64,000 bases of DNA from Opitutia bacterium (GTDB lineage: Bacteria > Verrucomicrobiota > Verrucomicrobiia > Opitutales > Opitutaceae): positions 512,001-576,000 of the forward strand of contig CANJVR010000002.1 of assembly GCA_947478395.1 (NCBI GenBank), read 5' to 3'. This document shows positions 9,564 to 64,000 of the stretch, piece after piece. A program made the position numbers and the translations under genes. The notes under the pieces were generated by a model, which did not search any database, was not told the origin of the DNA, and saw only the letters and a list, made by a program, of their open reading frames with translations. Within the stretch, counting starts at the first letter, position 1. Every line of letters begins with the position of its first letter.

Positions 9564-9653
9564 GCAGGGCGCGTTATCCCGCACGCGTCGGCTCGATACG
9601 GGCCCTCTCTACCAACCAAGTCGAAGCCGCGAGCTAAGGATGAAGCGCCCCGC
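9564..9653. repeat. Degenerate copy of the 90-bp GTAG palindromic element
   Basis: gcagggcgcgttatccc...ctaaggatgaagcgccccgc. Same 90-bp span and arm motifs as the copies at 62030 and 62876. Confidence 0.6.
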
Positions 9654-24711: not shown

Positions 24712-24801
24712 GCAGGGCTGCTATCCCTACCCCGTCGCTGCGACTTTGCGCACCGGAAAATCAACGCTAAGCCGGCGCGTTAAAGACAACGCGCGCTCGC
24801 C
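24712..24801. repeat. Degenerate copy of the 90-bp GTAG palindromic element
   Basis: gcagggctgctatccctacccc...ccggcgcgttaaagacaacgcgc. Arms resemble the copies at 62030 and 62876; it sits between convergent genes. Confidence 0.55.
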
Positions 24802-36362: not shown

Positions 36363-36527
36363 AGCGGGCGAGGCCGGACGCATCATCTCTAACGCGCCGA
36401 TCCGCGCCAAAGATCTGGCAACGAATTCGGAACCCGACGTCGCATGGAGAATAACGCGCCTTACCTCGGTCATGTTTTTTCCGTGTCTTCCGTTCGGCCG
36501 GTCGCCAAGTTTGGCGCTCCTCATTTC

Positions 36528-60856: not shown

Positions 60857-63487
60857 ATGCTCCGCCTCAATCTGCCACCCAATCTGGCCGCCGCCATCGT
60901 GCGCGACGCCGTCCCGATCAAGGTGGAACTTGATCTAGCCACCGTGCCGGCGCCCGGCTTGCTGCCCGTGCTCGCCGTGCTGCAACGGCTGTGTGGCGCG
61001 ACCCCGCCCGCGTTCATCCAGCTCACGCGCGCCCAACTCCGGGAAATCGCCACCGCCGCCGCCGACCAGCCGATTTTCCAGCACAACGGCCAGCTCGGCG
61101 TCTGGCGTCATGGCAATCTCCTCGGCGCGGACCCGGCGAAATCTGAAAACTCCAAAGCCCAATCTCCAAGCGCCAAACCCGGCGTTTCGTCCGCCCAACT
61201 TAAAACCCAAAACTCAAAACCCAAAACTGCGCCCAGTGGCGCCGCGCCGAGTCCACTGCTCGTCGACGGTTCTGAAAACTTCCTCGCCCTGACCCTGCCC
61301 TCGCCCGAGCACCCGCAATATGCCCGCGCCCTCGATCTGGTAAAATCCTCCGGCTTCGCCCTCGATCCGTCGTCACGCAAATGGTGGCTCCGCGACCGCC
61401 ACAAGACGCTCAATTTTTTAGCGACCTACGGCGAACGTCTTCGCGTTGGTTTCGACGCCGATTTCACGCCGAACTTCGAGCAGAACACCGCCCGGCTTCG
61501 TCCGGCCGAAATTATCGCCGACGCCGCCGAGACGGCCGGTGGTTACGCTGTCACGCTGGGCCTGCGCGCGGGCTCGGCCGACGACGGGTTGCTGCGTGAC
61601 GCGCTGGCAACCAACCGCCACTACCTCGAATCGAACGGCCACGTTTTCCTGCTCGAACCGGCGAAGCTCGCGCAGCTCGCCACCGCCCAACGCGCCCTCG
61701 CCGGCGATCCCACCGCGACAATCGCGCCGCGCCGTTCACAGCGGGTCAGCACCGCGCGCGTCGCCGAAGCGGAGGCGATCATCGAGGAACTGGCGCCTGG
61801 CTTTCAGCCGCCCGCGACCTGGCGGACGCGGAGCGCGGCCCTGCGCAACCTCACGTCGCTCGCGCGTGCCCCGATTCCCGCGCCGCTCGACGCCCAGCTG
61901 CGACCTTATCAGCGCCTCGGCGTCGCGTGGCTCTGGCATCTACATCGCTCGGAGTTGGCTGGTATTCTCGCCGACGAGATGGGTCTCGGAAAAACCCTGC
62001 AAGCGCTCGCGCTGCTCAGCGCAGTGCAGGTAGGGCGGGTTATCCCTAACCCGCCGGTTGTGCTCAGCGCACCCAACAGCTCCGAGTCGCTCCGGCGGGT
62101 TAGGGATAACCCGCCCTACCTGCAACCCAACCCGCAACCCGAAACCCAAAACCCGAAACCGCGACCAGCGTCGCTGGTGGTCGCGCCCGCCTCGCTGCTC
62201 GAAAACTGGCGCCGCGAAACGCTGCGCTTTGCACCGTCGCTCCGCGTGTTTGTGCATCACGGCGAACACCGGCTCCTCAGCGTGGCCGATTTGGCCGCGC
62301 ATGATCTCATTATCACGAGTTACGGCACGCTGACCCGCGATCAGGACCTTTTTGCGGCGGCCGAACTTACCGTGGTGATCGCCGACGAAGCCCAGCATAT
62401 CAAAAACCGTCGCTCCCAAAACGCCGCTGCCCTGCGTTCGCTGCGGGCGCGCAGCCGTTTTCTACTGACGGGCACGCCGCTCGAAAACTCGCTCGACGAT
62501 CTTCGTTCCCTCTTCGAATTCCTTTTGCCCGGTTACCTGACGCGGGTCCCGGCCGGCCTGCGCGGCGACGAACGCGCCTGGTACGATCAACGCCTGCGCG
62601 CCCAAACCGCGCCGTATATTCTCCGTCGCACTAAAGTGGCCGTCGCGCCTGAGCTGCCGGCTAAACTCGAGCAGATCATCTGGTGTGAATTCACGGCGGC
62701 GCAGGCCAAACTCTACCGTGAGACTCAGGAAGCGTCCGAGCGCCAGCTCCTGGACCTCGCCGCCGGGGGAGCGAGCGAAAGCCGGCTACAGTTCGCCGCC
62801 CTCACGCAACTCCTCCGCCTCCGCCAAATCTGCTGCGACCCGCGGTTGGTCGCGGCGGGACGCGCCGACTCCGAGGTAGGGCGCGTTATCCCTAACGCGC
62901 CGGTTGCACTCAGCGGACCAGAAACTCTCGAATCGCCCCGGCGGGTTAAGGATAACCCGCCCTACCTCGGCTCCGCCAAATTGGAGGCTTTCCGCGAACT
63001 CCTCGCCGAGGCGATCGACGATGGCCATCGGATCCTCGTTTTTTCTCAATTCACTTCCCTCCTCGCGCTGCTGCGGGACGAACTGGCCGCGCAGGAAATC
63101 GCGCATTGTTACCTCGACGGTTCGATGACGCCCAAAGCGCGTCAGGCCGAGGTCGACCGTTTTCAAGCTTCCGACGAGGTCCCGCTCTTTCTGCTCTCAC
63201 TCAAAGCGGGCGGCACCGGACTCAATCTCACCGGCGCCGACACGGTGATCCATTTTGATCCCTGGTGGAATCCGGCCGCGGAGGCCCAAGCGACGGATCG
63301 AGCGCACCGCATCGGCCAGACGCGCGCCGTGACGAGTTACAAACTCATCTGTGCCGGTTCCGTGGAGGAAAAAGTACTCGCGCTCCAAACCGAAAAACGC
63401 GCTCTGCTCGCCGATGTATTCGAGGCCAGCGACGCCATCGCCGGGAAACTCTCCCTTGGCGATCTCCGCGAGCTACTGCGGACCTAA
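60857..63487 (+). CDS. SNF2-family (DEAQ) helicase/ATPase carrying in-frame repeat insertions
   Basis: LRPYQ, ILADEMGLGKT, DEAQHIKN, LTGTPLEN, LRRTK, FSQF, SLKAGGTGLNL, WWNP..QATDRAHRIGQ. Confidence 0.95.
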   Translation: MLRLNLPPNLAAAIVRDAVPIKVELDLATVPAPGLLPVLAVLQRLCGATPPAFIQLTRAQLREIATAAADQPIFQHNGQLGVWRHGNLLGADPAKSENSKAQSPSAKPGVSSAQLKTQNSKPKTAPSGAAPSPLLVDGSENFLALTLPSPEHPQYARALDLVKSSGFALDPSSRKWWLRDRHKTLNFLATYGERLRVGFDADFTPNFEQNTARLRPAEIIADAAETAGGYAVTLGLRAGSADDGLLRDALATNRHYLESNGHVFLLEPAKLAQLATAQRALAGDPTATIAPRRSQRVSTARVAEAEAIIEELAPGFQPPATWRTRSAALRNLTSLARAPIPAPLDAQLRPYQRLGVAWLWHLHRSELAGILADEMGLGKTLQALALLSAVQVGRVIPNPPVVLSAPNSSESLRRVRDNPPYLQPNPQPETQNPKPRPASLVVAPASLLENWRRETLRFAPSLRVFVHHGEHRLLSVADLAAHDLIITSYGTLTRDQDLFAAAELTVVIADEAQHIKNRRSQNAAALRSLRARSRFLLTGTPLENSLDDLRSLFEFLLPGYLTRVPAGLRGDERAWYDQRLRAQTAPYILRRTKVAVAPELPAKLEQIIWCEFTAAQAKLYRETQEASERQLLDLAAGGASESRLQFAALTQLLRLRQICCDPRLVAAGRADSEVGRVIPNAPVALSGPETLESPRRVKDNPPYLGSAKLEAFRELLAEAIDDGHRILVFSQFTSLLALLRDELAAQEIAHCYLDGSMTPKARQAEVDRFQASDEVPLFLLSLKAGGTGLNLTGADTVIHFDPWWNPAAEAQATDRAHRIGQTRAVTSYKLICAGSVEEKVLALQTEKRALLADVFEASDAIAGKLSLGDLRELLRT
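62030..62119. mobile_element. 90-bp REP/REPIN-like MITE, in-frame copy 1
   Basis: Perfect 33-bp inverted repeats 62025-62057 / 62092-62124 with GTAG...CTAC ends. Each arm has an internal 9-bp hairpin. Confidence 0.8.
62876..62965. mobile_element. 90-bp REP/REPIN-like MITE, in-frame copy 2
   Basis: Same arms and length as copy 1; the 34-bp spacer matches copy 1 at 22 positions. Confidence 0.8.
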
Positions 63488-64000
63488 AACCAATTTTCTT
63501 TCGGACCTCGGAACCTTTCGCAGTCGCCAGCGTTGTCCGCTGCCGACGATAAAACCGGCGCAGCGTTTACTTCCGCATCGGCACGGATGCAGCCGCCATT
63601 CCTTGAAGCTGAAACCATAGTCGAAGGTGAGCTCCTCGCCGGCTCCGATTTCCCGCCGGGCCAAGATCCAGATTCGGCCGCGGATCACCTCGACGCGACA
63701 GTTGGGTGTGCAGGAATGGTTGATCCACCGCGCCACATTCTGCCGCGAACGCCCATCGATATCGTAGCGCCGGGTTAGGTCGAAAATATAGACGGAGCCA
63801 TCGCCGCCCCTGCGCTGCCGTTCCAATCGCCGTGCTTCCCGCCGCATGGCTTCTGCCTTCGTGATGCGCTCGCCAGTGTATTCGATCACTTTCGTCGCAT
63901 CGGGAATCGCCAGCCGGGCGTATACGCCGCGTCCGTGAATCAGGGAACGCTGGGCCACGACCCATCGGGATTTCGCCGCTGGCCGTGTCGCTGGAGTTCG
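63473..64000 (-). CDS. SET-domain lysine methyltransferase with post-SET (start uncertain; frame open to window edge)
   Basis: IHGRGVYA, IEYTGE, ARWINHSCTPN, GEELTFDY, CRCGSKRC. Confidence 0.92.
   Translation of the reverse strand, partial: RTPATRPAAKSRWVVAQRSLIHGRGVYARLAIPDATKVIEYTGERITKAEAMRREARRLERQRRGGDGSVYIFDLTRRYDIDGRSRQNVARWINHSCTPNCRVEVIRGRIWILARREIGAGEELTFDYGFSFKEWRLHPCRCGSKRCAGFIVGSGQRWRLRKVPRSERKLVLGPQ

Follow-up and report, generated by a model that had tools for sequence, protein, structure and literature searches.

In the present study, we analysed a stretch of 64,000 nucleotides from an Opitutia bacterium (contig CANJVR010000002.1, positions 512,001 to 576,000; hereafter the window), in which a gene for an SNF2-family helicase carries two short palindromic inserts. 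The window is part of a genome of 3.31 Mb in 9 contigs (G000), and the source names of its homologues are Opitutaceae or Opitutus. The SNF2 gene lies at positions 60857-63487 of the plus strand and encodes 876 aa without internal stop, as given by the list of open reading frames (ORFs) and Pfam; its start agrees with an 876-aa protein (P0001) and with the orthologues. This ORF matches SNF2-rel_dom with 204 bits and Helicase_C with 87 bits in Pfam, and the presence of both domains with intact motifs identifies it as an SNF2-family ATPase. The original prediction, made from the DNA letters, had also described the helicase motifs as intact.

The two inserts in the SNF2 gene

Both inserts consist of two inverted repetitive extragenic palindromic (REP) sequences around a spacer. 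Each measures 90 bp from GTAG to CTAC and stands in frame with the SNF2 ORF, encoding a peptide of 30 aa; translation of both peptides is predicted from the open frame. Copy 1 (62030-62119, plus strand; REPs at 62030-62055 and 62094-62119) corresponds to residues 392-421, between Walker A and motif Ia. It is built of two REPs of one arm type, and its inverted repeat reaches 5 nt beyond the GTAG (62025-62124), with arms of 33 nt that are 100% complementary (62025-62057 and 62092-62124). Copy 2 (62876-62965, plus strand; REPs at 62876-62901 and 62940-62965) corresponds to residues 674-703, between LRQICCDPRL and SAKL. Its two arms are of different types, the usual pairing in the family, and are 91% complementary over 33 nt. 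The 34-nt spacers of the two copies are identical at 22 of 34 positions. The palindromes, arms, spacers and in-frame peptides were thus as originally described. In both copies, the GTAG of the left arm leads directly into a perfect stem of 9 bp, which is closed by a 4-nt loop. On folding as single-stranded DNA, z-scores of -13.0 (copy 1) and -8.0 (copy 2) were obtained, and none of 200 shuffles was equally good.

The placement of the inserts in protein loops, also proposed beforehand, agrees with the structure model and with the length variation of both sites among the orthologues. The AlphaFold model of the protein had a mean predicted local distance difference test (pLDDT) score of 84, and both inserts appeared as coil of low confidence, with pLDDT below 50 at residues 396-427 (copy 1 region) and at most of residues 670-698 (copy 2 region). 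In the alignment with 1z63, the inserts fall on short gaps (1z63 residues 80-88 and 319-324); the structure alignment took in 78 of the 120 listed homologues. The two sites may be the 'minor' and 'major' Snf2 insertion sites.

The repeat family in the genome

A search of the genome with the arms gave 28 two-arm copies, with lengths of 89 bp (18 copies), 90 bp (5), 88 bp (2), 78, 95 and 96 bp. With a profile made from these 28 copies, 90 loci were found at E<=0.01, and 40 of them scored at least 45 bits. The GTAG family with further genomic copies that had been anticipated is therefore present. By location, 79 loci fall between genes, 5 straddle a gene end and 6 are contained in predicted genes. 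Only 4 of the 79 intergenic loci stand between divergent genes, and many are a few tens of bases from a gene end. The family has the features of the GTAG-REP superfamily, that is, GTAG at the end of a short palindrome (with stems mostly of 6-9 bp in the superfamily) which is repeated, mostly intergenic and placed between co-directional or convergent neighbours. It also has the REPIN arrangement, in which two inverted REPs and a spacer make one long hairpin. Both SNF2 inserts are GTAG-REP doublets (REPINs). Conservation extends beyond the GTAG, with G at position -1 in 55 of 56 arm flanks and A at position -2 in 42 of 56; hence 90 bp is the span between the tags and is not established as the inserted length.

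In most of the full copies (22 of 28), two different arm types are paired in the usual way, and copy 1 has one type twice. When the spacers of all 28 full copies are compared, those of copies 1 and 2 match each other best (score 15, with 9 for the next match), and only these two copies carry the inverted repeat 5 nt past the GTAG. A related spacer is found in an intergenic copy that also measures 90 bp (C5:102007).

The six intragenic loci comprise the two SNF2 copies, three loci in other genes and one near a doubtful start. In a GH20-domain protein, a 78-bp doublet is in frame (G000:C3:69998-70075, L063); no match to this GH20-like host gene was found in 20 relatives. In PurL (G000:C9:69549-69576, L065), a single arm is in frame and makes an insert of about 21 residues, which is missing in 12 of 13 loci of same-genus genomes, the remaining locus (L238) being unparsed. 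A PabB/TrpE-like protein holds a decayed doublet (G000:C1:157281-157368, L062). The length is divisible by 3 in all three intragenic full copies and in 4 of the 25 others (Fisher p 0.011), and this difference reflects a filter on the survivors and no property of the family. The family had been proposed to be sized and phased for proteins, which the counts do not bear out: the commonest length is 89 bp (18 of 28 full copies), only 4 of 25 outside genes are divisible by 3, and 6 of 90 loci lie in genes. Stops close two of the three frames of the left arm, so any coding copy that survives must read VGRVIPN.

Support from other assemblies

Contigs from the runs of four studies (X7, X9, X14 and X16) cover the region of the inserts. 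X14 crosses the left junction of copy 1 with no fewer than 31 letters to either side, and X7, X14 and X16 do the same for the right junction of copy 2. At the remaining two junctions, the covering pieces reach only 23-27 letters into the element.

Conservation of the inserts

Third codon positions of the arms in SNF2 genes (17 left and 12 right) are off the consensus at only 19 of 261 sites, whereas degenerate third positions of whole SNF2 genes are only 42-57% identical to those of the present genome. Differences in the arms are distributed over the codon positions as 19/14/19, and most of the changed codons (31 of 47) alter the amino acid. The window spacers differ by 2/5/5 at the three codon positions, with 6 of 8 changed codons non-synonymous. 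On this codon comparison the arms are conserved as DNA and not as protein. No sign of protein-level selection was found in the arm and spacer codons, and the peptide-donating role formerly suggested for the family finds no support there. The two arms of one type in copy 1 need two linked changes and alter the peptide (NAP to NPP), a change that would fit arm-to-arm copying.

Both peptides are retained in P0001 and P0002, which are 0.21-0.26 changes per site apart. In the orthologue P0002 (73% identity) the spacers are related as well, by protein comparison, and since these spacers are shared, the inserts in the window probably predate the split from P0002. None of 6 metagenome hits corresponded to P0002. 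P0003 has the whole site-2 insert and half of the site-1 insert, and the rest of the window's clade has remnants or replacements. Most orthologues lack the peptides, as had been expected of empty sites.

Orthologue loops and distribution of the family

The orthologue set consisted of 127 parsed rows (22 of 149 were dropped by the loop parser), and the tree was built without the loops. The length ranges over 6-76 aa at site 1 and over 9-65 aa at site 2, and 39 of the 127 rows have a site 2 of 9 aa. The peptide of this REP, whole or partial, was seen in 14 rows at site 1 and in 11 rows at site 2, and carriers at a single site are common. On the tree, the trait changes at least 11 times at site 1 and at least 9 times at site 2. 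A single clade of the 8 full site-1 carriers was rejected (p-AU 1.4e-8, approximately unbiased test) in a test that used 40 of the 127 rows, with the first tree known before the test and the group defined by the trait. P0020 has both inserts, yet site 2 is only 9 aa long in each of the five rows nearest to it. In addition, 11 two-arm copies were found in 10 other SNF2 loci; they are 54, 72, 78 or 81 bp long, all are in frame, and their spacers differ (two of these loci are identical at the insert site). It seems probable from these comparisons that the same two loops were filled separately in other branches. Ancestral presence of the inserts followed by many losses is a possible alternative.

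Other loops contain other palindromic peptides or peptides of 7-bp repeats, such as SQPSTLNS and PKTQNPK, the other repeats being judged from their peptides. In the window itself, a 7-bp tandem repeat of 4.6 copies (62129-62160, plus strand) stands in the loop of copy 1 and reads PETQNPKP, and a second one, also of 4.6 copies (61197-61228, plus strand), stands in a third low-confidence linker (residues 96-126). We also observed that such in-frame repeats in the SNF2 linkers, along with heptamer-derived loop peptides of many orthologues (SQPSTLNS, SKIENPKS), make up a second source of loop sequence. Heptamers like these may have a link to four-helix-bundle genes.

The arm motif is present in 58 of the 201 genomes of the bacterial family (the present genome included) and in 28 of 63 genera, with 0 control hits. 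Within the same genus it was found in one of six other genomes; in the five genomes with no arm match, no loop arm was found within 7 mismatches. Of the 27 genomes in which the arm matched five times or more, 7 have an arm in the SNF2 loops, compared with 1 of the 40 genomes below that number (2 of 40 when up to 7 mismatches were allowed), the unparsed loci L198 and L203 being omitted from these counts. The inserts are decayed in the sister clade, which is mostly without the family.

The RAYT gene

A REP-associated tyrosine transposase (RAYT) gene flanked by the same REP, as predicted for a REPIN system, was found on contig C5 and is broken. At C5:141809-142334 (L066:810-1335), two lone exact arms face each other, and the RAYT frame between them is interrupted by one internal TAA. 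The match to NF047646 (the REP_Tyr_transpos model) is 79.2 bits (cut-off 80; E 2.7e-22), the match to Pfam Y1_Tnp is 21.9 bits, below the cut-off of 23, and the PDHVH (HUH) and YIRQNP (catalytic Tyr) motifs are kept in the alignment with relatives. The TAA is common to runs X7 and X9. X16 lacks the TAA and has a one-base insertion upstream, and because this lesion differs from that of the present genome, the loss of the RAYT gene seems to be recent and to have happened more than once.

Among 200 genomes of the bacterial family, the 8 best-scoring relatives of this RAYT (L068-L075; 49-63% identity) all have this REP alongside, so the same flanking arrangement is seen at the C5 locus and at L068-L075. 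Beside the next 21 relatives this REP was not found, except for a 4-mismatch variant in L090. Several of those relatives have other palindromic peptides beside the gene, and some of these also occur in SNF2 loops (by eye). The RAYT clade was located only with the C5 pseudogene as query.

Some further details of these genes were recorded. The RAYT frame on C5 stays open across the left REP arm, and none of the usual start codons occurs from there to the conserved N-terminal residues. The final stop of this frame sits in the right arm, likewise in L068, L069, L070 and L074. In L069 a whole doublet is in frame at the N-terminus of the RAYT, and in L073 (G073:C4:2383-5814) ten arms of the SNF2-insert REP family cluster around the gene. 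A third, partial match to REP_Tyr_transpos (model positions 92-146) lies at G000:C6:112969-113133 (L099), with no family arm nearby.

The only match of the Pfam Y1_Tnp search in the genome was a 325-aa Y1 transposase, which lies between 33-bp terminal inverted repeats unrelated to the REP. It resembles the TIRtrons of PMC3733652. The gene (L001:875-2168; G000:C1 near 347,000) also shows a 201-bp tandem duplication of one end. At 30 Y1_Tnp loci of 19 REP-rich genomes, no arm was found nearby.

Discussion

We consider it likely that the two inserts are near-neutral passengers, that is, REP doublets spread by a RAYT which survived in frame in tolerant loops of the SNF2 protein and whose arms were refreshed as DNA. 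The RAYT whose now broken gene sits on C5 likely spread the family, and the insertions in SNF2 may be its work. REP doublets would land widely across the genome and would mostly persist between genes. Copies that shift the frame or hit the protein core would be removed by selection, and this would give the surviving copies the look of being sized for proteins. The copies left in SNF2 would then be those in frame, in two loops that accept a wide range of inserts, and the inserts would persist as passengers because of that position. The arms could be kept near the consensus by copying at the DNA level, through gene conversion, template switching or RAYT-driven exchange. Once the family is lost, the arms in the loops would decay.

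Several points weigh against this explanation. The division of loci into intergenic and intragenic depends on gene calls of our own hexamer model (2509 genes, 85% coding) and on no published annotator. Among the contig joints listed for the four runs, none skips exactly one element, and no empty allele, excision or RAYT activity was observed in these contigs. Present-day mobility is doubtful, judging from the broken RAYT in the present genome and in X16. The tree is unable to separate gain from loss. Because the genomes compared are not independent by descent and REP count partly guided their choice, the p-values overstate the significance. The arms were chosen by their DNA pattern, and 6 loci by an exact left-arm match, which biases their identity upward; this selection inflates identity, yet it does not account for the missing synonymous excess. 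Retention of both peptides in P0001 and P0002 could be explained by selection too. Furthermore, as the two copies have mutually nearest spacers, one may derive from the other, against the idea of separate insertions.

This last point is the basis of an alternative which we hold as tentative, and on balance unlikely, namely that one insertion entered SNF2 and the second copy arose from the first by conversion or duplication. The mutual best match of the spacers speaks for it, as does the extension of the inverted repeat past the GTAG, which is confined to these two copies. Against it, a 90-bp subfamily, of which C5:102007 with its related spacer may be a member, could have supplied both inserts, and orthologues with a single-site insert are common. 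Such copying would be compatible with the passenger explanation.

A more speculative proposal, to which we give a low probability, is that the two loops serve as landing pads. RAYT-driven exchange at existing hairpins would rewrite both loops with the active REP family of the lineage, and the hairpins might also tune helicase expression. If this were true, a protein segment would evolve in concert with a population of DNA repeats and would decay once the RAYT dies.

We regard it as improbable that the hairpins are kept as nucleic-acid control elements of the SNF2 message or gene (in RNA stability, cleavage, pausing or as a protein-binding site), with the peptide as a by-product. The very stable predicted hairpins, the DNA-level conservation of the arms and the perfect 33-bp repeat of one arm type in copy 1, in a family where most copies pair two types, would suit such a role, and many intragenic REPs lie in DNA repair genes according to PMC3733652. 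Against this, a 9-aa site 2, too short for a doublet, is present in 39 of the 127 rows, close relatives lost the arms, and family-derived copying accounts for the DNA conservation without any function.

Still less credit can be given to the co-option of the 30-aa peptides as binding or regulatory loops under protein-level selection, with the family acting as a peptide donor. The peptide VGRVIPN...DNPPY recurs at both sites in unrelated branches, P0001 and P0002 keep both peptides, and site 2 stands between motifs III and IV, where the large insertions of Swr1, Ino80 and Fun30 are placed in PMC3781322. However, the stops in the left arm force the reading frame, the changes are mostly non-synonymous with no third-position excess, and spacers and lengths are free to vary. 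The same loops are also filled by unrelated peptides, and the inserts are without fold in the structure model. An assembly artefact through collapsed repeats is hardly conceivable and has largely been refuted already: although the contigs of the four runs break at the elements and none covers the full stretch, two junctions are crossed in contigs of other studies, no joint passes over one element, both spacers are unique in the genome, and P0002 holds both inserts.

Passengers of the kind favoured here have precedents in the same group of bacteria. Di Nocera, De Gregorio and Rocco (2013; PMC3733652) reported intragenic GTAG REP dimers of Opitutus terrae (GTAG-17, -18 and -19), and additional file 3 of that paper contains, by our own count, 70 intragenic rows of O. 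terrae with 8 genes hit twice. Those dimers resemble the present ones in the bacterial family (by homologue names), the GTAG tag, the in-frame reading and the similar peptide sizes. One of the listed genes, Oter_3506 (848 aa, annotated as a kinase), has a GTAG-19 dimer at residues 625-640 and agrees in length, position and 16-residue peptide with the L180 SNF2 orthologue at site 2. Because of this agreement, the site-2 loop had in all likelihood already been listed in 2013, with another REP. The Oter_3506 peptide gave 0 hits in a motif scan of a collection of genome contigs. PurL is also a target in O. terrae, with two other REP dimers at other positions. The VGRVIPN peptide does not occur in additional file 3 (0 hits for 'VGRV'), and the present REP may or may not be one of the 24 published families (GTAG-1 to GTAG-24). 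Unlike that listing, here both loops carry one family and their repeated filling was traced on a tree.

The likeness to REPIN/RAYT systems (TnpA-REP, REPtron; PMC3116915 and PMC8266576) includes the inverted REP doublet with a spacer forming a hairpin, the mostly extragenic position and a REP-flanked Y1/HUH gene. The group 3 REPs of PMC8266576 have a layout of GTAG, stem and loop similar to the left arms here. Compared with those systems as described there, the present family is small (90 loci), its RAYT is a pseudogene, and a few copies are coding. Rickettsia palindromic elements (RPE-1, -4 and -6, as described in PMC3733652) are likewise palindromic repeats translated in frame, and RPE-1-tagged proteins are expressed in vivo according to the same source. 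The elements of R. conorii have CGTC ends, and CGTC repeats are apparently without a dedicated transposase in that account, whereas here GTAG/CTAC ends and a RAYT are present. The SNF2 inserts were therefore not assigned to the Rickettsia elements, as their ends are GTAG/CTAC and the CGTC tag is absent.

As a discovery these inserts add little, since in-frame GTAG REP dimers in Opitutaceae genes, double insertions included, were listed in 2013. In searches of an open-access library, we found no publication on this REP family or on the repeated filling of these SNF2 loops. Their use lies in a natural experiment: one conserved gene has two loops that many REP/RAYT pairs fill, and lineages that have the family can be set against lineages that lack it. 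The comparison could directly test if REPINs target hairpins that already exist, or if their insertions are merely filtered by selection.

Other features of the window

Three further copies of the family were found in the window. A degenerate copy at 9565-9650 (C2:521565-521650; strand not assigned, as for the other two) scores 34.5 bits, and another at 24714-24795 (C2:536714-536795) scores 46.9 bits; both lie between convergent predicted genes. A weak and doubtful copy at 36377-36464 (C2:548377-548464; 18.5 bits, E 0.006) is intergenic by our own gene calls. On the minus strand at 63473-63958, a convergent ORF that looks SET-domain-like by eye overlaps the stop region of the SNF2 gene by a few codons.

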